A DNA stretch of 64,000 bases from an uncultured Muribaculaceae bacterium (GCA_964370755.1 CAYJKL010000001.1:9046-73045); one strand, 5' to 3'. Shown: positions 19,118 through 62,990, counted from the first letter of the stretch. The notes: generated by a model from the letters alone, not told the origin. A program made the numbers and translations.

Positions 19118-19218
19118 ACTATCGCTCCTTCCGCCATGCTTTTTATAAAGCATAGATTTGCATTTCCTATGTATTATATCATATTTTTTCAATTTTTCAA
19201 GTATGTTATTAGATTTTT

Positions 19219-27756: not shown

Positions 27757-29694
27757 ATGCGTTTTTTTAAACTTAGTTTTAAACTTTTTATATTTGGCTT
27801 TATCTCTTTTGTTGTTATTATGGTAGCTCTTTATGTCTATGCCTATTTAAGCCCTCAGATTGATTTAAAAACTCCTGGTAATCTATATTTATATGATAAT
27901 AATAGTAATTTAGTTTATCAAGGTTCTAAATCTAGTCAGTGGGTAGAAATAGATGATATTAGTGACTATTTGATAAATGCCACTATTTCTGTTGAAGATA
28001 AAAATTATTATAACCATTCTGGATTTGATTATATAAGGATTGCTAGTGCTGCACTTACTAATATTCAAACAAGAAGTATTACTCAGGGTGCTTCTACTAT
28101 AACACAGCAATATGCTAAAAATATGTACTTAGATTTTAGTCAGACTTTTGAAAGAAAAATAGAAGAGGCCTTTTTAACTCTAGAACTTGAAGTTCACTAT
28201 GAAAAAGATGAAATTTTAGAAGGTTATTTAAATACTATATATTATGGACAAGGTAATTATGGTATTGAAAATGCTAGTAACTTTTACTTTAATAAAGATT
28301 CTAAAGATTTAACGCTTGAAGAAGCTATAATTTTAGCTGGTATACCTAATAGACCAAATGATTATAATCCTGTATCAAATTATGAAGCATCTGTTAATAG
28401 AGCTCTTATCGTTGCTAAAACTATGCTTGATAATGGTTATATTAGTGAAACTGAGTTTGAAGGTTTATTTGAAAATGAACTTGAAATATACGCTAAGAAT
28501 ACTGAAAATGATTTACAAATGGTTATGTATTATCAAGATGCTGTTTTAGATGAACTTTATTCACTTAAAGAAATTCCTACTTCTTTAATAGATTCTGGAG
28601 GTCTTAAAGTATATACCACACTTGATTTAGATGCACAAAAGAATTTAGAAGAAAATATTCTTGAAAATTTACCTGATGATGAAATACAAGTATCTAGTGT
28701 TGTTGCTGACCCTAATACTGGTGCAGTACTAGCTTTAACAGGTGGTGTTGATTATTCTCTTAGTACATATAATAGAGCAACTACATCTACTAGGCAAGTA
28801 GGATCTGTTATGAAATCTTTTCTTTATTATGCTGCTCTTGAAAATAATATGACTATGGCTTCTACTTTTAAAAGTGAGCATACTGTATTTACACTATCTA
28901 ACGATCAAGTTTATTCACCTAGTAATTATAATAATAAATATGCTAATAAAGATATTACTATGGCAGCAGCTCTTGCTTTTTCTGATAATATATATGCAGT
29001 TAAAACCAATCTTTTTTTAGGCATTGATAAAATGATTGATGTTGCTAAAACTACTGGCATTGAAGGCAATTTAAATGAAGTTGCTTCACTTGCACTTGGG
29101 ACTAGCGAACTTAGTTTGATAGATATTGCTACTGGTTATACTACATTTGCTTCTGGTGGATATGAAAGAGATTTATATTTTATTGAAAGAGTTGAGGACA
29201 TGAATGGTAATGTACTTTACGAAAAGGAACATGTAAATAATCTTGTTCTTAACCCTAACTATACATATATACTTAATGAAATGCTTGCTTGTACTACAAG
29301 TAATAAATTTAGTGATTATACTGTAGCAACAGGCGTTTCTATAGCAAATGAATTAACAAATAAGTATGCACTTAAAAGTGGTACTACTGATACTGATAAC
29401 TGGCATATTGGTTATAACGAAGATTTACTAGTTGCTATATGGATGGGTTATGATGATAATAAAGAGACCAATTCAACAGTGAGCCAAAAAGAAAGAAATA
29501 TTTGGGCTAGTACTATGGAAGATATTTTGGCAAATAAAAACACCAACTGGTATGATAAACCTGATAATGTAGTTGGTGTTATGCTTGATTCTGTTACTGG
29601 AGAAGCTCCTACTGATAGTGATAATAGTACAATATTTTATTTTCTAAAAGGAACTGAACCTGGAGCAAGCTCTTATGTTAGTACACCTGATTAA
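27757..29694 (+). CDS. Class A penicillin-binding protein (glycosyltransferase + transpeptidase)
   Basis: GT51 motifs SVEDKNYYNHSGFD and GASTITQQYAKN. Transpeptidase motifs GSVMKSF (SxxK), SDN, KSGTT. N-terminal TM anchor. Confidence 0.9.
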   Translation: MRFFKLSFKLFIFGFISFVVIMVALYVYAYLSPQIDLKTPGNLYLYDNNSNLVYQGSKSSQWVEIDDISDYLINATISVEDKNYYNHSGFDYIRIASAALTNIQTRSITQGASTITQQYAKNMYLDFSQTFERKIEEAFLTLELEVHYEKDEILEGYLNTIYYGQGNYGIENASNFYFNKDSKDLTLEEAIILAGIPNRPNDYNPVSNYEASVNRALIVAKTMLDNGYISETEFEGLFENELEIYAKNTENDLQMVMYYQDAVLDELYSLKEIPTSLIDSGGLKVYTTLDLDAQKNLEENILENLPDDEIQVSSVVADPNTGAVLALTGGVDYSLSTYNRATTSTRQVGSVMKSFLYYAALENNMTMASTFKSEHTVFTLSNDQVYSPSNYNNKYANKDITMAAALAFSDNIYAVKTNLFLGIDKMIDVAKTTGIEGNLNEVASLALGTSELSLIDIATGYTTFASGGYERDLYFIERVEDMNGNVLYEKEHVNNLVLNPNYTYILNEMLACTTSNKFSDYTVATGVSIANELTNKYALKSGTTDTDNWHIGYNEDLLVAIWMGYDDNKETNSTVSQKERNIWASTMEDILANKNTNWYDKPDNVVGVMLDSVTGEAPTDSDNSTIFYFLKGTEPGASSYVSTPD

Positions 29695-30650
29695 TTAGGT
29701 ATATTTATTTTAAGAACAATTGATCCATTTTCTTCTGTTTCAGTAAATGTTACATTTGGGTATTTTGAGATAAATTCTTTTATCTCATTTTTTATGTTAC
29801 TATCACTTGCTGGGCTTTGTGGCACATCAAATTCATCTAACATTTCTATTTCTTCAACTGCTGGACTTATTTCTGGAGCAGTCACACTCATGTTTGCTGA
29901 TTCATCTTCTAAAAAGTTAAAAAATTTATTTGGTACTTTTTCAGTATTATTTGGATTATTAAACATATTTTGCTCCTCTCTTTTTATTACTTCTTCTTTA
30001 GGAATTATTTTAATTGGCTCTATTTTAGGCTTTTCTTCAACGCCTTGCATTTTTATAATTTCTTCTTCTAATCTTTTTACACTTAATCTTTCATTTAATA
30101 TTTTATCAAGTAGTGTTTTTTGATCTTCTATTTTTTTTACTTTTAGAAGTGTTCTAGCATGTCTTTCTGAAATTTTTTCAGCAAGTATTGCATCTTGCAC
30201 ACTTTCATCTAAGCTAAGAAGCCTTAGTTTATTAGAAATAGCACTTTGACTAATCCCCATTTTTCTAGCAAGTTCCTCTTGATTCATTAAACCTTTATCA
30301 AGTAAAGCTTTATAAGATTTTGCTTCTTCTATTGCTGTTAAACTTTTTCTTTGAACATTTTCAACAATTGCTACTTCTGCACTTTTTGTATCTGACATTT
30401 CTGTTATTATTGCTGGTACTGAAATAAGTCCCGCTATTTTCGCAGCACGATATCTTCTTTCTCCTGCTATAATTTCATATTTATCATTTATTCTTCTTAT
30501 TATAATTGGCTGTATAATACCATGCTCTTTAATTGACTGTGCAAGTTCAGATAATGAGGCATCATCAAAAGCTAATCGTGGTTGAAAACGATTAGGTAAT
30601 ATGTCCTCTATTGGTATTTGCATTACATTATTATTATTCATGCTAGCCAT
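29691..30650 (-). CDS. noc: ParB-family protein, Noc-like (nucleoid occlusion protein) by position and recognition-helix residues
   Basis: ParB N-domain PNRFQPR and CTP-binding box IIAGERRYRAAK. The HTH GISQSAISNKLRLLSL...ISERHARTL resembles B. subtilis Noc (GKGQSTIANKLRLLKL...ITERHARAL) rather than Spo0J (GKSRPHIANHLRLLTL...LSMGHGRTL); this comparison is from memory. The C-terminus ...IVLKINIPN resembles Noc ...IQLTIRIPK. The gene lies immediately downstream of rsmG, as noc does in Bacilli. Confidence 0.75.
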   Translation of the reverse strand: MASMNNNNVMQIPIEDILPNRFQPRLAFDDASLSELAQSIKEHGIIQPIIIRRINDKYEIIAGERRYRAAKIAGLISVPAIITEMSDTKSAEVAIVENVQRKSLTAIEEAKSYKALLDKGLMNQEELARKMGISQSAISNKLRLLSLDESVQDAILAEKISERHARTLLKVKKIEDQKTLLDKILNERLSVKRLEEEIIKMQGVEEKPKIEPIKIIPKEEVIKREEQNMFNNPNNTEKVPNKFFNFLEDESANMSVTAPEISPAVEEIEMLDEFDVPQSPASDSNIKNEIKEFISKYPNVTFTETEENGSIVLKINIPN

Positions 30651-30736: not shown

Positions 30737-30756
30737 AAGTGCATACTTTTGCACTT
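30737..30756 (-). terminator. Intrinsic terminator after rsmG, separating it from noc
   Basis: Minus strand reads AAGTGCA-aaagta-TGCACTT followed by TTTTT. The hairpin overlaps the rsmG stop codon. Confidence 0.5.
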
Positions 30757-31459
30757 ACTTTAATTCTGATTTTATTATTTTATCGTATGGTCTTACGTTT
30801 TCTAAGTTTGATTCTTTAGTCTTAATAAATCTTACTATGTTTCTTTCTCCAGAATCATTTATCAGATTAAATTTTTCTTTTTTATCTACTGTTAAATTTA
30901 ATAGTTTAATTGTATTTTCGGCTTCTTTTAACTCTTCTGTAAGTGTACCTTTCATCGCAATAAAACTTCCATCTTTTTTTACAAAAGGAACACATAACTC
31001 TGTTAGTACTCTAAGGTTAGCTACTGCTCTTGCTGTTACTGCATCAAATTTATTTATGTTCTTTTTTAAGTAGTTTTCTGCTCTATCGTTTACTACGGTT
31101 ACCTTTGAACCGATACCATTTGATACATAATTTAAAAATTTAGTTTTTTTATTATTTGAATCTAAACAAGTTACTTCTAAAGATGGATAGAATATTTTAA
31201 GAACAATTCCTGGAAAACCCGCACCTGATCCTATATCTAGTAAGTTTGTAACAGTATTTAAATCAATTACTTTAGCTATTGTTAAACTATCGTAGAAGTG
31301 TTTTAAGTATACATCTTCTTTTTCAATAATTCTTGTTAAGTTTGTATGCTCATTATAATCTTTTAGAAGTTCGTAATATCTTTCTAATTTATCTAACATT
31401 TCACTAGTGTAGGTAATATTTAGTTTAGTTATTTCTTCTATAAATGTTTCTTTATTCAT
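30755..31459 (-). CDS. rsmG: 16S rRNA (guanine527-N7)-methyltransferase RsmG (GidB)
   Basis: SAM motif LLDIGSGAGFPGI. Conserved position after mnmG, with an 8-nt overlap. Confidence 0.9.
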   Translation of the reverse strand: MNKETFIEEITKLNITYTSEMLDKLERYYELLKDYNEHTNLTRIIEKEDVYLKHFYDSLTIAKVIDLNTVTNLLDIGSGAGFPGIVLKIFYPSLEVTCLDSNNKKTKFLNYVSNGIGSKVTVVNDRAENYLKKNINKFDAVTARAVANLRVLTELCVPFVKKDGSFIAMKGTLTEELKEAENTIKLLNLTVDKKEKFNLINDSGERNIVRFIKTKESNLENVRPYDKIIKSELK

Positions 31460-33322: not shown

Positions 33323-33970
33323 CTACTTTGATTTTCCAAATAATCTTATTAAATCTAAAAATAAATTAATGAAATCAATATATAATTCAAATGCACCATA
33401 TATTACAAGTTTATTATCTTCCATTCTAGATATTTGATTTTTGATTTTTTGCATATCGTATGATATAAAACCAGTAAATATTAATGCTGATGCTGCTGTT
33501 ATAATTATGTTAATAGTTTCACTTTCTAAGAAAAAGTAACTAACTAATGAGAATACGATAATTATTAATAATGATATTGATAACATATTTCCTAAACCTG
33601 TTAAGTCTTTTTTGGTTTTATATCCTATAATTGCCATTACCACAAAAATTGCAGATGTTAATAGGAATATTGATATTATTGATGACATCTCATATGTCAA
33701 AAATATACTTGAAAATGTTATACCTATAATACTTGAATATACTAGGTATAAAATATATAAAATTTGTGTTGGTAACTTGTTAATTAATAATTTGAATGCA
33801 AATGCTGTTACTAACATTGCTATTATTATAGGTAATGTCCCTATATCTACTAATAGTTTATAAGCGAGTTCTGCATCATTAGATATGTAGTATCCTGCTC
33901 CAAATGAGATTAGTAATCCTATTGCCAACCATAAAAATATTTTATTAAATATATCATAATTATTTTCCAT
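33323..33970 (-). CDS. Bax inhibitor-1/YccA family membrane protein
   Basis: Seven predicted TM helices and the C-terminal signature GAFELYIDFINLFLDLIRLFG. Confidence 0.8.
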   Translation of the reverse strand: MENNYDIFNKIFLWLAIGLLISFGAGYYISNDAELAYKLLVDIGTLPIIIAMLVTAFAFKLLINKLPTQILYILYLVYSSIIGITFSSIFLTYEMSSIISIFLLTSAIFVVMAIIGYKTKKDLTGLGNMLSISLLIIIVFSLVSYFFLESETINIIITAASALIFTGFISYDMQKIKNQISRMEDNKLVIYGAFELYIDFINLFLDLIRLFGKSK

Positions 33971-33998
33971 ATTATTTTTTTCCTTTCAAAATACAATG

Positions 33999-34676
33999 TT
34001 ATCTTACTGGTAAATATCCTGCGATTGCACCAGCTAAGTTCATAATAGGCATTGATTGTAAGTATACTACTCCAGGACCCGTTATAACTGTATTAAATAG
34101 ACCTTCTCCTCCGAATACCATATTTTTTAAACCTGGTACAGTTTTAATATCCATTTTACATGTTGCACTCATAGCTGCTAAATTTCCAGTATCCACTATT
34201 ATTTGTTCTCCATCTGCTAGTGTTTTTTCTACTACATATCCATCAAATTCTGCAAATGCAAGGCCTTCTCCAGATATTTTTTGTAGAATAAACCCTTCTC
34301 CTCCAAATAATCCTGCTCCGATTTTTTTTCTAAAATGCATTGATAACTCTACTCCTCTTGTTGAGCATAAGTATCCACCTTTTTGAAATATCATTTCACT
34401 TCCTGGTTTAATTTCAAATACTTTAATTTCACCTGGTAAGTTAGATGCTATAGAGATTGATCCTGGTCCACCCTTTGCTGTATATATGTTTTGCATTAAA
34501 GTTTCCCCAGATAAAGCTCTTCCTAAAAGTTTACCAACTCCACCATTTGTAGTTGTTTTCATTTCCATGTTAGGTGTCATCCAGCACATTGCTCCACCTT
34601 CACTGTTTATTGATTCATTTTCTTCAAGTTCTATTGTAAGTAGCGGCAAATTTCCGCCTTCTATTTTATAATTCAT
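33999..34676 (-). CDS. AIM24/TIGR00266 (DUF124) family protein
   Basis: MNYKIEGGNLPLLTIELEENESINSEGGAMCWM and repeated GGEG(L/F) motifs are typical of the family. Confidence 0.7.
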   Translation of the reverse strand: MNYKIEGGNLPLLTIELEENESINSEGGAMCWMTPNMEMKTTTNGGVGKLLGRALSGETLMQNIYTAKGGPGSISIASNLPGEIKVFEIKPGSEMIFQKGGYLCSTRGVELSMHFRKKIGAGLFGGEGFILQKISGEGLAFAEFDGYVVEKTLADGEQIIVDTGNLAAMSATCKMDIKTVPGLKNMVFGGEGLFNTVITGPGVVYLQSMPIMNLAGAIAGYLPVR

Positions 34677-38352: not shown

Positions 38353-39342
38353 TTATCTTTTTTTTCTAACATTTTTGTATTCTGTAATATATTTTTCATA
38401 ATAACTTGCGTATTTATCAAGTATAAATTTTTCTGCTTCTCTAGCAACATTTGTATTAGGTTGTTCTATATCGAATGCATGGAAACAACCTTCAAATATT
38501 GCAAATTCGACGGGAACATTACTTTCTTTTAATTTTTCAATGTAGTTTTTAGTTTCTATATAAAATGGATCTAGGGTTCCTATTAATGATATTGTTGGAG
38601 GAAGATCACATAAATTATTTTCTTTGCTTACTGATGCATAACTCGGAATTTCAAGATTATTATTATATAAGTTACTTAAATATGCTTCCCAACCTAATCT
38701 ATTAGAAGCGGTTCCCCACATAGGACTTTCTATATACCTATTTACATCGTATGGTTGTGTACAATCTATCATTGGATATATTGGAAGTTGAAATGCAATA
38801 TCAATATCTTCCTTATTTCTTACTAACAATGATGTTGCAGTTGTTAAACCTCCTCCGGCACTTGGACCTCCAACTATAAAACGATCTTTGTATATTCCAA
38901 TATCACCATGGTTATTTTTAGCCCATAATAAACTATCATAGCAGTCATTTATTGCTGCTGGATAAGGTTCTTCGAAAGCTTTTCTATATTTTGGGGAAAC
39001 TATTATACATCTTTTTTTATTAATGAACTTTTCAATACAATCCTCATACATCTCTGGATTTCCGGTGATATAACCACCTCCATGTATATACAAAAATAGA
39101 GGAATAGGCGTTTCTACATTCTCAGGTTTATATATTTTTAATTTCAAATCGTTATTAGTTTGGGTAACTATACTTTCTTCTGTAATTTTTATATTTTCTC
39201 TTTTTTTTGATTTTGAAAAATATTTTAAATATAAATTATGAGCTACAACAAAGTTCTTATTTGACAATAACTTAGCAATCAACATATACTTATCATAATT
39301 TGATTTTAAATCTCTGTGTAACATATTTTTCGTAACTTTCAT
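38353..39342 (-). CDS. Alpha/beta hydrolase fold-3 esterase/lipase (HSL/arylacetamide deacetylase-like)
   Basis: Oxyanion motif YIHGGGY, nucleophile elbow GGPSAGG (GxSxG), and C-terminal Asp/His regions (LIGTLDPF, GCFHAF). Confidence 0.8.
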   Translation of the reverse strand: MKVTKNMLHRDLKSNYDKYMLIAKLLSNKNFVVAHNLYLKYFSKSKKRENIKITEESIVTQTNNDLKLKIYKPENVETPIPLFLYIHGGGYITGNPEMYEDCIEKFINKKRCIIVSPKYRKAFEEPYPAAINDCYDSLLWAKNNHGDIGIYKDRFIVGGPSAGGGLTTATSLLVRNKEDIDIAFQLPIYPMIDCTQPYDVNRYIESPMWGTASNRLGWEAYLSNLYNNNLEIPSYASVSKENNLCDLPPTISLIGTLDPFYIETKNYIEKLKESNVPVEFAIFEGCFHAFDIEQPNTNVAREAEKFILDKYASYYEKYITEYKNVRKKR

Positions 39343-39552
39343 TTTTTCACCTACAAATTTGTTATATTATATTAATATAATATACTAAAGTCAAGATTAC
39401 CTTTCCTGAAAAATAAATATCTGCTGTGTCAAATTAATATTTTTCTAATAGATTAATACACTTTTAATTATTATAAACATGGTTAAAATCATGTTTTTTT
39501 ATATTTACTATAATCTAAGTATATTAATTAAGTTTGGATTAAAGACAAATTT

Positions 39553-40275
39553 TTACTCTATATAATCTTTAATATTGTATCCATCTTTAAATTCAATAAA
39601 TTTTGATATTCTTGGATGGATTGCTCTTTTTGGACAATTGTATATACAATTCATACATAGTATACAATTTAGTCCAAATTTTGGTTTATTTTTCATTTTT
39701 ATATTTTTTTGTGGACAACTTTTAATACATTTACCACATTTTATACAACTTTTATTTGCTTTTAACTCTAGTCCAAATAACTTTACAAAAAAAGATTCTA
39801 ATAAATGTACTATGATTAGTGATTTTGATAATAAAGATATTTTTATATTAGTTTTTTTGTTATTAATTATATCACTGTAAATTTGATTTATTTCCTCAAC
39901 TGATTTTTCAATTATTTCTTTTCCATACTTTTTATCAAATTTTTTTACTATAGTTAGTGGCATAGCTAGTACTTTATATGTAGAAATATCTATCTTTTCT
40001 TTTTTTGCTTTGTTAATTAGATGTATTCCTGCTGCGCTATTAATTTTTTCTTTGTTACACCCTACAGCTATTATACTTAATTTTTTTATGTTAGTAACTT
40101 TCTTAGATAATTTTAACGGAATTCTAAAAGCATGAATAGAGCTCATTATGATTAAGTGGTCACAATTTACTTCTTCTTCTATGTTAATTATTTCACAATT
40201 TAGTTTTTTTGATAGAATTGTTGCTAAAAATTTTGTGTTACCTGTTGGGCTAAATGATAATATTTGATATTTCAT
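39553..40275 (-). CDS. Flavodoxin-like protein fused to a 2x[4Fe-4S] ferredoxin domain (EFR1-family-like)
   Basis: N-terminal flavodoxin-type loop ILSFSPTGNT. Two cluster motifs: CIKCGKCIKSCP and CILCMNCIYNCP. Confidence 0.65.
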   Translation of the reverse strand: MKYQILSFSPTGNTKFLATILSKKLNCEIINIEEEVNCDHLIIMSSIHAFRIPLKLSKKVTNIKKLSIIAVGCNKEKINSAAGIHLINKAKKEKIDISTYKVLAMPLTIVKKFDKKYGKEIIEKSVEEINQIYSDIINNKKTNIKISLLSKSLIIVHLLESFFVKLFGLELKANKSCIKCGKCIKSCPQKNIKMKNKPKFGLNCILCMNCIYNCPKRAIHPRISKFIEFKDGYNIKDYIE

Positions 40276-40279
40276 GTTA

Positions 40280-40636
40280 CTAACTTGGTATTATTTCAAT
40301 CCAGTATCCATCCGGATCTGATATAAAATATATTCCCATCTCTTTATTCTCATAACAAATGCAGTCCATCTTTTTATGTTTATTATAACTTTCTTCAAAA
40401 TTATCAGTTTTTAATGCTAGATGAATTTCATTATCTCCTAGATTATATTTTTCTTTTCTATCATGTAAATAAGTTAACTCGATTGTAAAATCTGTTTTTT
40501 TGTCTGTTAAATATACTAAAGTAAAATTTTCTTTTTTATATTCTTTCTTTATTTCTAAATCTAGTGCTTCTTGATAAAATTTTATACTTTTTTCTAAATT
40601 TAAAACATTAAAGTTAAAATGTGCTAGTTTATACAT
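40280..40636 (-). CDS. VOC-family protein (glyoxalase I/lactoylglutathione lyase-like)
   Basis: 118 aa. N-terminus is LAHFNFNVLNLEKSIKFYQEALDLE; C-terminus is FISDPDGYWIEIIP. Confidence 0.8.
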   Translation of the reverse strand: MYKLAHFNFNVLNLEKSIKFYQEALDLEIKKEYKKENFTLVYLTDKKTDFTIELTYLHDRKEKYNLGDNEIHLALKTDNFEESYNKHKKMDCICYENKEMGIYFISDPDGYWIEIIPS

Positions 40637-40699: not shown

Positions 40700-40960
40700 G
40701 TTTTTAATGTTGATAACTTTATGTGTATTTTTTTAGTAACACATTTTTAAACATAGTTATTAACATTTTACATTTCGATTTTTCTTTTAAATTCGACAAA
40801 TTTCGACTTTATTCACAAATTAACACCTATTAACATTTCTTAAAACAACACATAACTTATAAATGTTGGTTTGTTAATTGCAATTTGTTGATAAATGTTA
40901 ATAAGTATTTTTTTCTTGTAAATAAAAGCAATTTTGTGTTGATAAGTATGTGGAAAAAAT
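40700..40960. promoter_or_regulatory. oriC upstream module / dnaA promoter region: cluster of DnaA boxes (TTATCCACA-like)
   Basis: TGTTGATAA (complement of TTATCAACA) at 40708-40716, 40886-40894 and 40937-40945. TTATTCACA at 40809-40817. TGTGGAAAA (complement of TTTTCCACA) at 40949-40957. Weaker TTATTAACA-type boxes at 40757-40765 and 40896-40904. The gene-strand switch occurs here. Confidence 0.7.
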
Positions 40961-41039: not shown

Positions 41040-42386
41040 TTGAAAACTAATGAACTATTTAATAAATTTCTAAATGAGCTGGCTAATCAGTTAACTCCTA
41101 ATACTTATAGTATTTGGTTTTCAAAACTTGAGCTTGTTTCTATAACTGATGATGTTGTTACTATTAAAGTTCCAATGAATGTACATAAGACGATGCTGAG
41201 TGATAACTATTATAATGTTATTAACTCAACTTTTTATTCTATAACAGGTAAAGATTATACTTTTAAATTTGTTTTAGAAGAAGAACTTAATGATGTTACT
41301 AAAGTTATTGATACACCTAGTGCTGAAGAAGAACATGATTGGCATACTAATCTAAATACTGATCACGTATTTAATAATTATGTAGTTGGCGATACTAATA
41401 GACTTGCATTTATTGCGTCCAAGGCCGTTGCTGAAGCGCCTGGCACTATCCATAATCCTCTCTTTTTATACGGAAGAAGTGGTTTAGGTAAAACACATTT
41501 AATGCATGCTATAGGAAATTATGTTACTGAAAATACTAATAAAAAAGTTTTGTATACCACAAGTAATGACTTTATGACTGATTTTACTGGTATAGCTAAC
41601 ATTGATAAGGGTATTAATAGTATAAACTACGCTAATGAATTTAAGAATAAATATCGTAATGTTGATGTACTAATGATTGATGATATTCAGTTTTTAGTAG
41701 GAGCTGAGCGGACACAACAAGAGTTTTTTCATACATTTAATGCACTTCATCAAATGAATAAACAAATTATTATTACTAGTGATAGATCACCTGATGATTT
41801 AAAGAAAATTGAGGAACGCCTCAGAAGCCGCTTTAAATGGGGACTTCCTGTTGATATTTATCCACCAGATTTTAATCTAAGGTGTGAAATTATTAAAGCA
41901 AAAATCAAGAATAATATTATTGGTAAGAAAGTTGATAGTGATGTTATTGAATATATTGCTAATAGTTGTCCTAATGATGTTAGACATATAGAAGGTACTA
42001 TTAATAGATTAATGGCTTATACAGCTATGATGATTCCTACTAAGATTAATCTAGATTTTGCTATTGAAGCATTAAAAGATTATGTTAATAACAATGTTTA
42101 TTCTGATAATTCTATTTCAAATATACAACAAGTTGTTGCAGAATATTATAAAATTACTGTTGATGATATGAAAAGTAAGAAGAGAAATAGTAAAATTATT
42201 AGACCAAGACATGTTGCTATGTATTTATGTAGAAATGAAACTAGTGAAAATTTAGCAAAAATTGGTCTTGACTTTGGAGGACGTGATCATTCTACTGTTA
42301 TTGCTGCTTGTGAAAAGGTAAAACATGACTTAGAAAGTGATAAAGAACTTGATAAAGTGTTGAAAGAAATCAAAGAAAAGTTATAA
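41040..42386 (+). CDS. dnaA: Chromosomal replication initiator protein DnaA
   Basis: TTG start after GGTGAGGA. Walker A GRSGLGKTHL, box VII, and the C-terminal DnaA signature RPRHVAMYLCRNETSENLAKIGLDFGGRDHSTV. Confidence 0.97.
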   Translation: MKTNELFNKFLNELANQLTPNTYSIWFSKLELVSITDDVVTIKVPMNVHKTMLSDNYYNVINSTFYSITGKDYTFKFVLEEELNDVTKVIDTPSAEEEHDWHTNLNTDHVFNNYVVGDTNRLAFIASKAVAEAPGTIHNPLFLYGRSGLGKTHLMHAIGNYVTENTNKKVLYTTSNDFMTDFTGIANIDKGINSINYANEFKNKYRNVDVLMIDDIQFLVGAERTQQEFFHTFNALHQMNKQIIITSDRSPDDLKKIEERLRSRFKWGLPVDIYPPDFNLRCEIIKAKIKNNIIGKKVDSDVIEYIANSCPNDVRHIEGTINRLMAYTAMMIPTKINLDFAIEALKDYVNNNVYSDNSISNIQQVVAEYYKITVDDMKSKKRNSKIIRPRHVAMYLCRNETSENLAKIGLDFGGRDHSTVIAACEKVKHDLESDKELDKVLKEIKEKL

Positions 42387-42388
42387 AA

Positions 42389-42499
42389 TGTTGATAACTT
42401 TTAGTAACTAACACCTGTATCTTAGGGAAATTTATAAAGTTATTAACATTATCAACATTGTTATTATAAATAATATATAAAAAGAAAGAAGGTAAAAAA
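42389..42499. promoter_or_regulatory. oriC downstream module (dnaA-dnaN spacer): DnaA boxes followed by an AT-only stretch (candidate unwinding region)
   Basis: TGTTGATAA at 42389-42397. Two abutting head-to-tail boxes, TTATTAACA (42440-42448) and TTATCAACA (42449-42457), are followed by TTGTTATTATAAATAATATATAAAAAG. Confidence 0.6.
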
Positions 42500-49743: not shown

Positions 49744-49793
49744 TTTTTTTTTTACTTGCTCTGCTCTATTGGTTTTCAATTTATATTAATATA

Positions 49794-50017
49794 TTATGTA
49801 AACTGAATATTTCCCGGGAAATAAAATTGTGAATAAATATAACGTTATTAACATAAAAATATTTCCCGGGAAATATTTTTATATGTTATGTAACCCAAAA
49901 TATTTCCCAAATTATAAAATTTTGTATAAATTTGTATGTTATGTTAACAAATTATTTCCCGGGAAATAATTTCGTTGCAACCAATTATTATGTAAACTAA
50001 TTATTTTCCAAAAATAA
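49794..50017. repeat. Tandem array of five ~41-53 bp units, each TTATGTAAAC-like + 4-5 nt + Noc-binding-site (NBS) palindrome TATTTCCCGGGAAATA
   Basis: Perfect 16-mers at 49808-49823, 49860-49875 and 49953-49968. A half-site-only copy TATTTCCCaaattata lies at 49901-49916, and a decayed copy TATTTTCCAAAAATAA at 50002-50017. TTATGTAAAC-type motifs are at 49794, 49886 (TTATGTAACC), 49939 (TTATGTTAAC), 49988 and 50081, with TTATTAACAT at 49845. The core equals the B. subtilis NBS consensus ATTTCCCGGGAAAT. Confidence 0.75.
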
Positions 50018-50328
50018 GTTAAGTTCTCTTATCAATATTTAATGATATATACCTGGCAAAATTTGTGTTTTTAAATAATATTATGTAAACCAAATTCTTA
50101 AGCTAGCTAATGCTCTTTTGTTTATTCTTATTTTTTTTAAAGTAGCTTAATATATTTCATTATTTATTTATAATTTGAATGATAGATATGTATTATAATT
50201 TCAATTATTCGTTTTTAAATTTATTATATATTTCTATTATAATATATTTTTTAAATTATTAGTTATATATATTAACAGATTGATCTTTCGTATTTATTAT
50301 AGTATATATCCTTAATTTTTACGAACAA

Positions 50329-51023
50329 TGTTCCACGTGGAACATTGTTTTTTTGTTGTATGTGTTATATATTGATATATTTTATGTATATTGATTCAAA
50401 TTTTCTTGGCTAGTAGTTATATAATTCATTAAAATATATTCAATGTTCCACGTGGAACATTGAGTGTTGATAACTTATACATATATTATTTGAGTTAAAT
50501 ATATATTTAATGTTGTTTTATTTTATTTATTTGTTAATAAAATCACCATTTTTGTAACTTTATATACTTTTGATGCGTTTGATGTTCCACGTGGAACATC
50601 ATGTTTATAATGCATTTTTTTAGTCTGTTATTTTAATTATAATATTTCAGTGTTAATAAATCCTATCTATTTTTTTTATTACGATTACAATGTTCCACGT
50701 GGAACATTGGTTATTTTTGTTGGTAACTTTCTCAATATAATTGAGTGTTATTATATTTTTTTGCCTAATTTACGCGGAAAATTCAATGTTCCACGTGGAA
50801 CATCAGCTTGTTGATAACTTATTTTCATGTTCTTTTTTTGATATATTAAATTAATGTTAATAAGTTTCCTATAAAATTTAAATAGTATTTTTTTCTTTAT
50901 ATGTTCCACGTGGAACATTAAGTGTTGATAAGTTTTATAACGAGAATGTTTTATTATAGATTATTTTGTGTTAATAATATAGTTAAGTATTTAGTATTTC
51001 AAAACAATGTTCCACGTGGAACA
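50329..51023. repeat. Array of seven identical, perfectly symmetric parS (ParB/Spo0J-binding centromere) sites
   Basis: TGTTCCACGTGGAACA at 50329-50344, 50444-50459, 50583-50598, 50691-50706, 50787-50802, 50902-50917 and 51008-51023. All copies share the 18-bp palindrome ATGTTCCACGTGGAACAT, and the first extends to 26 bp. This matches the parS consensus TGTTNCACGTGAAACA. The spacers are AT-rich and only loosely related to one another. Confidence 0.8.
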
Positions 51024-51097: not shown

Positions 51098-51126
51098 TTG
51101 TTTTTCAATGTTAATTATGATATAAT
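51098..51126 (+). promoter_or_regulatory. Putative extended -10 sigma-A promoter for the SRP RNA gene (TTGTTT - 17 nt - TGaTATAAT)
   Basis: Read directly from the sequence. The -10 TATAAT at 51121-51126 is preceded by TG at 51118-51119. The predicted start is near G51133. Confidence 0.5.
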
Positions 51127-51132
51127 TTATAC

Positions 51133-51210
51133 GTGCAACAAATATATTGTAATCTGGTCAGGATCGGAAGATAGCAGCCACGTCAATCCCTATTTGTGTG
51201 CACTTTTTTT
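51133..51210 (+). ncRNA. ffs: Small (4.5S-type) signal recognition particle RNA
   Basis: CTGGTCAGGATCGGAAGATAGCAGCCACG matches the universally conserved SRP RNA domain IV (E. coli CCAGGUCAGGUCCGGAAGGAAGCAGCCAAGG) including the GGAA tetraloop. The closing stem is GTGCAACAAATA...TATTTGTGTGCAC, followed by T7. It sits next to tadA/dnaX, as scr does in B. subtilis. Confidence 0.65.
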
Positions 51211-51222
51211 ATAGGAGAATTT

Positions 51223-62135: not shown

Positions 62136-62798
62136 ATGTTTTGTGGAAATTGTGGAACTAAAAATGAGGTTACTGCTAAACATTGTGTGAATTGTGGAAA
62201 TGCACTTGCTCCTGCTAATGAATCGGTAAGTAATGTTGCTCCTGCTGCTGTGCCAGTAAATAATTCAAGTAATGATTTTGTTGTTAATGCTAAAGCTAAG
62301 GGAAATGAGTTAATTACTAAAGGAAAAGATTTTTATGCTAAAAGTCCTAATACTGTTTATGGTATTGTTGGTGGCGTAGTTCTTGTTATTATTCTATTTA
62401 TCGTTTTAGGAGATAAAACGATGACATGTGAGACATCGGAAAGTTTTGCTGATACTTCAGTAGATGTTAAATATAATGGAGATGATGATGTAACTAAAAT
62501 TTTTATTAAAGTTGTTTATGATACTACTGATGGGGATTTTGAAGATTATTTAGATTATGAAGATGTTGACATAGATGAATTTGTAGATGATCAACAAGAT
62601 GATTTAGAAGATTATATGGATGATGCTCCTGATGGATATAAAGCGTCTATTAAAAAAAGTGGAGATAATATAATTCAAACTCAAGAATTTAAAGGTGAAG
62701 CTTTAGAAGAATATTTAGATGACTTAGACGTGAAAGATGTTGATGATTTAGAGGATTATTTAGAAGATGGTTACTCTGATTATAAGTGTGAAAAATAA
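62136..62798 (+). CDS. Zinc-ribbon membrane protein with a highly acidic extracytoplasmic domain
   Basis: MFCGNCGTKNEVTAKHCVNCGN (double CxxC zinc ribbon), one TM helix (VYGIVGGVVLVIILFIVLG), then an Asp/Glu/Tyr-rich domain. Confidence 0.5.
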   Translation: MFCGNCGTKNEVTAKHCVNCGNALAPANESVSNVAPAAVPVNNSSNDFVVNAKAKGNELITKGKDFYAKSPNTVYGIVGGVVLVIILFIVLGDKTMTCETSESFADTSVDVKYNGDDDVTKIFIKVVYDTTDGDFEDYLDYEDVDIDEFVDDQQDDLEDYMDDAPDGYKASIKKSGDNIIQTQEFKGEALEEYLDDLDVKDVDDLEDYLEDGYSDYKCEK

Positions 62799-62799
62799 T

Positions 62800-62990
62800 T
62801 TAACAGAGAAGAAAATGAGTAATAGTTAATATTTTAAAGAGAGTTAATGTTTGGTGGAAATTAATAAATTAATACTATGAATATGGTTTTTGGAGTTAAA
62901 ACGGGTAATTACGTTATAAATATTTAAGTGCATGGAAATCATGAATTAAGGTGGTACCGCGGATATATATTCGTCCTTTCTTAGTTTGTG
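62800..62990 (+). promoter_or_regulatory. T-box leader (tRNA-sensing riboswitch), probable Met specifier
   Basis: Canonical T-box sequence AATTAAGGTGGTACCGCGG at 62944-62962, with the 3' partner TTCGTCCTTT. Upstream are stem I elements AGAGA (62804) and AGAGAG...TGGTGGAAA, and a stem III-like hairpin CATGGAAATCATG. The candidate specifier is ATG followed by A at 62877-62880. metG is the second gene downstream. Confidence 0.7.

Follow-up and report, generated by a model that had tools for sequence, protein, structure and literature searches.

A Noc-clade ParB-family protein without the N-terminal membrane helix, and a conserved Noc-helix-like motif in its linker, in the origin region of an uncultured bacterium

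The window analysed here, a 64 kb stretch (64,000 nucleotides) of an uncultured Muribaculaceae bacterium (GCA_964370755.1, CAYJKL010000001.1:9046-73045), is a replication origin region with one ParB-family gene, at 29691 to 30650 on the minus strand. Judged from its sequence, the encoded protein is a Noc orthologue by descent, as indicated by its place in a tree, its Noc-type C-terminal domain, its best structural matches and the position of its gene after rsmG, and its subfamily within Noc, a very large one that has yet to receive a name, comes from uncultured low-GC, small-genome Bacilli of the gut and rumen. At present Noc is defined by three traits that work together, namely binding to Noc-binding sites (NBS), a cytidine triphosphate (CTP) switch, and an amphipathic helix at the N-terminus which this switch frees for the membrane; the subfamily described here, natural and frequent in gut metagenomes of humans and animals, appears to have the first two of these traits without the helix. 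On balance we favour the reading that the window protein is this lineage's Noc orthologue, a CTP-dependent clamp that would load at NBS, with the helix replaced by motifs in the linker and with Spo0J encoded elsewhere, and we hold this to be probable while leaving considerable room for doubt. A preliminary description of the window had asked whether a single protein with a mixed specificity signature services two arrays of sites, and to that question our answer is mostly deflationary, as the signature is not mixed and one protein for two arrays is unlikely. What seems worth carrying forward is the family-wide loss of the helix, the Noc-helix-like motif in the linker, and an NBS triplet beside a centromere array that bears DnaA boxes. 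The gene and the parts of its product are the following (aa, amino acids; pLDDT, predicted local distance difference test).

29691 to 30650, minus strand: Noc-clade ParB/CTPase gene, an open reading frame (ORF) of 319 aa; the database version, from Met4, has 316 aa
30351 to 30629, minus strand: N-terminal CTP-binding domain, aa 8-100 (Pfam ParB_N, PF02195, 121 bits)
30048 to 30344, minus strand: helix-turn-helix DNA-binding domain, aa 103-201 (Pfam HTH_ParB), with the recognition region at aa 132-166
29802 to 30041, minus strand: acidic, Pro/Glu/Asn-rich disordered linker, aa 204-283, pLDDT below 50
29889 to 29933, minus strand: linker motif 1, PNKFFNFLEDESANM, aa 240-254, amphipathic and resembling the Noc membrane-targeting sequence
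29829 to 29855, minus strand: linker motif 2, EEIEMLDEF, aa 266-274, acidic and hydrophobic, typical of the sub-lineage of the window
29694 to 29801, minus strand: Noc-type C-terminal (dimerisation) domain, aa 284-319, assigned with a hidden Markov model (HMM) of the family domain

The ORF and the sequence details that the preliminary description gave for it were all correct on re-reading. The N-terminal domain, modelled by AlphaFold2 (AF2) with a pLDDT of ~90, carries the CTP-domain boxes FQPR, GERRYRA (aa 63-69) and ENVQR (aa 97-101), and two residues within them, R66 (R89 in Bacillus subtilis Noc) and N98 (N121), are invariant in the 43-sequence family alignment A1. The linker comprises 80 aa, among them 15 Glu and 9 Pro, with a net charge of -11, and the C-terminal domain behind it is modelled as helix-strand-strand at a pLDDT of about 80.

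That the protein is Noc-like, as had been proposed, is borne out by structure searches, by a tree and by its C-terminal domain. By sequence and by fold its closest solved relatives are the Noc proteins of B. subtilis and Geobacillus: the best sequence matches in the PDB are the Noc entries 7ol9 (191.8 bits) and 7ng0 and 7nfu (~189 bits), as against 169 bits for Spo0J (6sdk), and the top five Foldseek matches are all Noc structures. The modelled DNA-binding domain superimposes on the Noc-NBS complex 6y93 at 1.4-1.9 A (template modelling score, TM, 0.87-0.89) and on the ParB-parS complex 6s6h at 2.7 A (TM 0.73). A neighbour-joining tree was computed from 192 columns of the N-terminal and DNA-binding domains, with 60 bootstraps. 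Its 104 sequences comprise the window protein with 73 relatives, 24 Spo0J proteins of the clade, the Noc and Spo0J proteins of B. subtilis, the Noc of Geobacillus and, as outgroups, three ParB that do not come from Firmicutes. The family is monophyletic in 58 of 60 bootstraps, and the split that sets the family together with B. subtilis and Geobacillus Noc apart from all Spo0J/ParB recurs in 53 of 60, so that the alignment and phylogeny suggested earlier as a check group the protein with Noc. Over its whole length the family C-terminal domain HMM matches the closing 42 residues of B. subtilis Noc (242-283) at 29.5 bits, and 25 of 25 Spo0J sequences stay below 4 bits. The curated NCBIfam model for Noc, TIGR04285, leaves the assignment unsettled because genuine Spo0J proteins score nearly as high on it: the window protein reaches 269.8 bits over model positions 1-202 of 255, with the cutoff at 315, where B. 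subtilis Noc scores 373, other family members 274-293, B. subtilis Spo0J 257 and the Spo0J of the clade 232. With real Spo0J at 232-257 bits and the window protein at 270, we dropped the model as a means of telling Noc from Spo0J.

Known Noc proteins (B. subtilis, G. thermoleovorans, S. aureus; TIGR04285; 7ol9, 7nfu, 7ng0, 6y93) and the window protein have several traits in common: a ParB-type CTP-binding N-domain whose GERRxRA and ENxQR boxes are intact, a helix-turn-helix with a permissive K beside the NBS-reading Q and R, the Noc-type C-terminal domain, a gene that comes straight after rsmG, genomic sites that fit the NBS consensus of B. subtilis perfectly, and ~49% identity over the N-terminal and DNA-binding domains. 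Unlike known Noc, the window protein has no N-terminal amphipathic helix alpha1, no helix alpha2 and no spacer; in place of the second permissive lysine it carries S, for which relatives may have N, T or A; and its family scores under the curated Noc cutoff and has an acidic, disordered linker of 80 to >400 aa with conserved short motifs where the linker of B. subtilis Noc is short and basic. The NBS sites of the window, moreover, are clustered beside the centromere array and not scattered. With chromosomal ParB/Spo0J (B. subtilis Spo0J, 6sdk; TIGR00180), the paralogue from which Noc arose, the protein shares the overall fold, the CTP-clamp architecture and ~45% identity. Spo0J, however, has R...G at the base-reading positions where the window protein has Q135 and R163, begins with an LG(R/K)GL peptide that stimulates ParA, differs in its C-terminal domain and is encoded beside soj, and relatives of this organism carry such a Spo0J in addition to the Noc-like protein.

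These comparisons make it very improbable, in our judgement, that the protein is simply the organism's chromosomal ParB/Spo0J, wrongly labelled Noc-like and binding the parS array. Such a mislabelling would fit the public annotation of the relatives ('ParB/RepB/Spo0J family partition protein') and a Noc model score that lies below its cutoff and is nearly equalled by real Spo0J, but it would have to accommodate Q for an invariant R and R for an invariant G at the base-reading positions (PMC7383237), a C-terminal domain of Noc type and not of Spo0J type, a place in the tree apart from all Spo0J sequences, and the coexistence of the family gene with a genuine Spo0J in about 25 related species. 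The ParA-contact motif LG(R/K)GL does not occur in the N-terminus of the window protein, and an adjacent parA/soj gene, a Spo0J trait, was not found in the 64-kb window.

The relatives are known from uncultured gut and rumen assemblies of low GC content, labelled variously as Bacilli, Tenericutes, Mycoplasma sp., Erysipelotrichaceae and Clostridium sp. CAG:609, and include a closed genome of ~1.2 Mb. Labels such as 'Tenericutes bacterium UMGS' and 'Clostridium sp. CAG:609' may hint at RF39 of GTDB, or a neighbour of it, as the taxonomic order. All 150 of the best 150 representatives of 50%-identity clusters fall in the family, whose members range from ~230 to 660 aa in length, have a short N-terminus in every case, and differ widely in the linker between the DNA-binding and C-terminal domains, which is hypervariable in length and sequence and rich in Pro, Asn and Glu. 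Because it stays below the TIGR04285 cutoff of 315, the subfamily is publicly annotated as generic ParB/RepB/Spo0J, an annotation that hides a Noc system in these genomes.

The absence of the membrane helix of Noc, remarked on in the preliminary description for the window protein, extends through the family. In the window protein the N-terminus (MASMNNNNVMQIPIEDILPN) leaves merely 7-8 residues ahead of strand beta1 of the ParB N-domain, and an N-terminal extension is impossible because an in-frame TAA lies 4 codons 5' of the ATG; the N-terminal amphipathic helix is likewise absent from the best 120 close homologues and from the best 150 representatives. Adams et al. 2015 found this helix in all Noc homologues that they examined and showed that it is required for function, can be transplanted and can be replaced by a foreign helix (PMC4331003). 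Helix alpha1, helix alpha2 and the spacer are reported to occur throughout the Noc homologues studied and to be needed for membrane binding and for function (PMC4331003, PMC8429893), and CTP binding frees the helix (Jalal et al. 2021, PMC8429893). Model TIGR04285 begins at residue 29 of B. subtilis Noc and therefore does not cover the membrane helix.

The part of the finding that interests us most is linker motif 1, which would be a conserved functional element whether it acts as a tether or as a docking peptide. A Noc-helix-like peptide inside the linker, PNKFFNFLEDE (aa 240-250, nt 29901-29933), had been pointed out beforehand; it is real, and nothing else in the linker is as well conserved: F243 and F244 are invariant in 43 sequences, and N241, K242, N245, F246, E248 and N253 are at least 90% conserved, as are E269, L271 and D272 of motif 2. 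In the sub-lineage of the window the consensus sequences PNKFFNFLEDxAANM and EEIEMLDDF are near-invariant within an otherwise unalignable linker, and the wider family shares the core N-[KR]-F-F, sometimes twice. The hydrophobic moment of motif 1, 0.64, is the highest in the C-terminal half of the protein. A position-specific scoring matrix (PSSM) of the motif, anchored on [KR]F[FI] and derived from 189 distinct copies in linkers, matches B. subtilis Noc well at one place only, residues 4-17 (SFSRFFGLGEKEQE), which is the membrane-targeting sequence; there it scores 11.8 bits, partly by virtue of the anchoring, with -7.0 for the runner-up, and none of 2000 shuffles attains that score.

Motif 1 most likely replaces the Noc helix as the effector end of the protein. 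That both the motif and its surroundings are acidic speaks against a simple membrane tether; we can entertain, without calling it probable, that the motif is a relocated weak membrane tether and, slightly more tentatively, that it is a docking peptide for a partner protein. In either case NBS-loaded clamps would couple DNA to the cell envelope or to the division machinery. Were the motif a tether, closure of the N-domain upon CTP binding could not sequester it in the known way, and membrane gating would therefore have to differ from the published model; were it a docking peptide, it would point to a further protein partner of Noc. Clamp-binding, PIP-box and SSB-tail readings of the linker motifs fit the consensus poorly and are not put forward.

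The DNA specificity of the protein can be approached through four residues of the recognition region, Q135, K141, S146 and R163, numbered 173, 179, 184 and 201 in Caulobacter ParB. They align to Q/K/K/R in B. subtilis Noc and R/H/T/G in Spo0J just as the preliminary description had it, but the 'mixed' character that it read from them does not stand. Jalal et al. 2020 showed that Q173 contacts adenine 1 and R201 cytosine 6 of the NBS, that R173 is invariant in parS-specific variants, and that positions 179 and 184 make permissive phosphate-backbone contacts for which one lysine, be it at 179 or at 184, suffices, with 184 tolerating any residue (PMC7383237). Since both lysine positions are permissive and one lysine is enough, S146 is not a ParB-like state, and the Spo0J-type combination R173/G201 is not found in the window protein, which has Q135 and R163. 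Across the subfamily the third signature position is N, S, T or A and essentially never lysine; QK(N/S/T/A)R occurs in 120 of the 120 closest matches listed and in about 130 of the 150 best representatives. Among relatives that share their locus with a canonical soj-spo0J, QKSR is the signature seen most often (14 of 24) and is therefore not an adaptation to being alone; when signatures were compared by locus type, S or T as opposed to N at the third position did not track loss of an adjacent spo0J.

The engineered intermediates ParB(QKAR) and ParB(QTKR) on the path from parS to NBS specificity (PtoN; Jalal et al. 2020) offer the closest parallel, as they have Q173, R201 and a single permissive lysine, although they are laboratory variants in the Caulobacter ParB scaffold and the family is natural and widespread. 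Both are missing from the lists of dead, hybrid-site and promiscuous variants (PMC7383237), which by elimination suggests that they prefer NBS. We predict that Q-K-S-R reads NBS with the help of one permissive lysine and does not represent a move towards ParB; the family would then exemplify in nature the route to NBS specificity through a single permissive lysine, which deep mutational scanning had predicted. With the code thus carried over from another scaffold, the window protein is predicted to bind the three perfect NBS sites of the window and not its seven parS sites, which are located as follows.

49808 to 49823, 49860 to 49875 and 49953 to 49968, unstranded: NBS, TATTTCCCGGGAAATA, three perfect 16-bp palindromes, predicted loading sites of the window protein
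49899, or near 49901: decayed fourth NBS copy, AATATTTCCCAAATTATA
50329 to 51023, unstranded: parS, TGTTCCACGTGGAACA, seven identical palindromes, predicted to be unbound by the window protein

All of these sites lie in one 1.4 kb intergenic stretch between gyrA and the signal recognition particle (SRP) RNA gene, and no shuffle of the window reached the match counts for either NBS or parS. The seven parS copies are identical over 18 bp and sit in AT-rich spacers with diverged flanks, and this 18-bp identity amid diverged flanks argues that the exact ParB consensus is still under selection. In six low-GC metagenome contigs whose GyrA is 57-66% identical to that of the window, 4-8 parS sites likewise follow gyrA and precede dnaX; spacing and copy number vary among the six, and one of them (L174) has seven copies exactly 38-39 bp apart. 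Because the array keeps the same place after gyrA in the six contigs, we take it to be the conserved centromere of the clade.

L085, 1337 to 1570: parS array
L104, 649 to 1022: parS array
L129, 2239 to 2430: parS array
L131, 3352 to 4029: parS array
L174, 892 to 1137: parS array
L188, 2419 to 3199: parS array

An intergenic parS array is not an oddity in itself, an idea that we considered and rejected, as clusters of 3-17 sites occur across contigs of all GC contents. The NBS triplet has a different standing. In agreement with the predicted specificity, NBS sites are strongly enriched at the loci of relatives (8 in 1.31 Mb versus 0.05 expected; itemised as 6 perfect and 8 near-perfect), where they are scattered singles, and a single contig (L129) has an NBS-like site beside its parS array; within 10 kb of the gene in relatives there are no parS sites and only single scattered NBS sites. 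Since the relatives' sites are scattered singles, a triplet beside the centromere appears to be special to this lineage. Under the reading that we favour, the Noc-like protein would load as a CTP-dependent DNA clamp at the NBS sites between 49808 and 49968 and at other NBS sites of the genome and would leave the seven parS sites unbound, with motif 1 serving as its effector end in place of the N-terminal helix.

Two repeat patterns accompany the arrays. The NBS sites are part of a larger repeat (49782-50095) in which TATTATGTAAAC(T/C) recurs at 49791, 49937 (a variant), 49985 and 50078, and the last two copies are followed by weak NBS remnants only. The DnaA box of the organism, TTATCAACA, is present in 23 copies versus 2.7 expected, clustered on both sides of dnaA (40708-40945 and 42389-42457). 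Within the parS array, between 50444 and 50931, three of these boxes (50465, 50809 and 50923) each stand 5-6 bp behind a palindrome, and other parS copies are followed by degenerate DnaA boxes (GTGTTAATAA). Such composite units of parS and DnaA box might couple ParB loading with DnaA binding.

Which protein serves the parS array depends on the fate of soj-spo0J, for which the locus of the Noc-like gene and its neighbours are informative.

30755 to 31459, minus strand: rsmG (TIGR00138, 164.9 bits), the upstream neighbour that marks the canonical noc position
27757 to 29694, plus strand: gene for a class A penicillin-binding protein (PBP1A; TIGR02074, 506 bits), convergent, in the place that soj-spo0J has in sister lineages

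On the minus strand the genes run rpmH-rnpA-yidC-jag-mnmE-(two inserted genes)-mnmG-rsmG-Noc-like gene, and the sign of the GC skew switches near 40 kb, close by dnaA (41040-42386) with DnaA boxes TTATCAACA on either side of it, which marks the window as the replication origin region. Measured against the order rsmG-noc-soj-spo0J, the Noc-like gene follows rsmG here and the convergent PBP1A gene comes next, the two overlapping by 4 nt at their 3' ends; gene calls and profile searches agree with the preliminary description that soj-spo0J is not at its usual place. No second ParB and no ParA was found among all window ORFs of at least 40 aa, by blastp or by unfiltered hmmsearch with Soj and Spo0J profiles of the clade, so that the earlier statement that this is the only ParB-family gene is right for the 64 kb of the window and is not extendable to the genome.

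We compared related loci from 80 species and mapped their arrangements on the tree. Nearly all have rsmG ahead of the Noc-like gene, and three arrangements follow: the Noc-like gene directly followed by soj and a canonical Spo0J (23 of 80 species, plus one cut by a contig end), the Noc-like gene facing a convergent PBP1A gene (about 24 species, comprising all the closest relatives and the abundant P0073 lineage), and the Noc-like gene followed by other genes (about 25 relatives). The Spo0J encoded beside the Noc-like gene has the N-terminal RRALGRGLEELF, an R...G helix-turn-helix and B. subtilis Spo0J as its best match. In the tree, nearly all species with the noc-like-soj-spo0J arrangement form group A, and the other two arrangements, the window included, form group B. 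Group B did not start out without Spo0J, because one of its members (L079) has soj-spo0J adjacent and another (L037), nested among PBP-type lineages, has it on the other strand beside rpmH in three independent contigs; the latter case means that relocation does occur within group B. We envisage, then, that soj-spo0J ancestrally stood directly downstream of noc, that it was displaced in the sub-lineage of the window, and that a canonical Spo0J elsewhere in the genome would serve the gyrA-proximal parS array.

In the lineage with the relocated genes (L204-L206; L037:979-3049), rpmH stands divergent beside soj-spo0J and not beside dnaA, which indicates that the origin-proximal gene order has been rearranged, and csp, dnaB/dnaI-like genes and dnaE come next. 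The linkers of group A carry a richer set of motifs, NYGKVxIAPP, PKFINYGEIDD, ADLDSLLN, NFITPAEKIVK and EDYFKxPDL (L036, L038, L046, L052, L056, L067, L072, L073 and L081-L083); the strict NKFF motif occurs in 2 of 24 in group A and in about half of group B. Motif type in relation to soj-spo0J adjacency follows phylogeny, and the link may not be causal.

For the parS array of the window, the most likely partner is a canonical Spo0J whose gene lies outside the window, a reading we consider probable and the simplest one, because the array is conserved and its exact parS consensus seems still to be selected. The puzzle of one protein for two arrays is weakened, given the NBS-type Q and R of the protein and the relatives that keep or relocate soj-spo0J, and is not formally dissolved. 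We think it unlikely that soj-spo0J has truly been lost and that the Noc-type protein runs the origin region by itself, through the NBS triplet and possibly parS, uniting occlusion with a centromere or SMC-loading role. The lack of a ParA or second ParB in the 64 kb around oriC would agree with such a loss, as would their absence from the surroundings of the gene, out to 10 kb, in about 24 PBP-type and about 25 'other' relatives, the locus in the closed 1.2 Mb genome among them; so would the clustering of NBS beside parS in the window where relatives have scattered singles, and the missing ParA-contact motif, which fits a ParA-free system. Yet Q135 and R163 are the residues that read NBS, and binding to parS calls for R at the first of the four positions (PMC7383237); relatives with an adjoining Spo0J share the signature, which therefore does not look retuned; the group to which the window belongs still contains Spo0J (L037, L079); and retention of the parS array clade-wide, distant members included, is most simply explained by a conserved Spo0J. 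The fuller form of this idea, in which a genome without Spo0J and Soj has the Noc-type protein as its sole ParB-family CTP clamp, reverted to an origin-organising role at the NBS triplet with perhaps relaxed parS recognition and an internal Phe-rich tether, seems to us improbable.

Nor do we give much credence to a loss of Spo0J that leaves an NBS-only protein beside a parS array which is a recent relic or is bound by an unrelated factor, perhaps one linked to the DnaA boxes. Three parS copies do have a DnaA box 5-6 bp further on, so that the array may serve beyond ParB loading, and the failure to find Spo0J in the window, or out to 10 kb from the gene in the PBP-type and 'other' relatives, fits as well; a relic sits poorly with seven copies identical over 18 bp in diverged AT-rich spacers, and we know of no other protein family that reads the parS 16-mer.

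Several points weigh against the favoured reading of a Noc clamp at NBS with Spo0J elsewhere. The Noc model score of 269.8 bits is below the cutoff of 315 and barely above genuine Spo0J (232-257 bits), and the tree is distance-based and includes two canonical Noc sequences only. The specificity code was measured in the Caulobacter ParB scaffold, and the accessible part of the supplementary text of Jalal et al. 2020 holds no fitness values for QKSR, QKTR or QKNR. As to the motif, the PSSM score is partly built in by the [KR]F[FI] anchor, the net charge of -1 to -2 in motif 1 and of -11 in the linker is atypical for helices that bind anionic membranes, and the AF2 helix at motif 1 is short and of low confidence. 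Finally, neither Spo0J nor Soj was found in the window or, out to 10 kb from the gene, in about 24 PBP-type relatives; the best 120 matches to a 12-sequence Spo0J profile of the clade (502-511 bits) all come from other lineages, as do the best 120 matches to the divergent Spo0J of L037 (at least 83% identity), so that neither list bears on absence.

Other features of the window lie apart from these questions. The two genes inserted between mnmE and mnmG (33323-34676), accessory genes in a conserved block, encode a TIGR00266-family protein and a MAG0110-family membrane protein, and the interval between rpmH and dnaA (38353-40636) holds an esterase/lipase, an EFR1-type ferredoxin and a small glyoxalase-like ORF. 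Rfam matches identify the small SRP RNA (51125-51219) directly after the parS array, a T-box leader (62797-62981) and an L31 ribosomal-protein leader (19125-19155).

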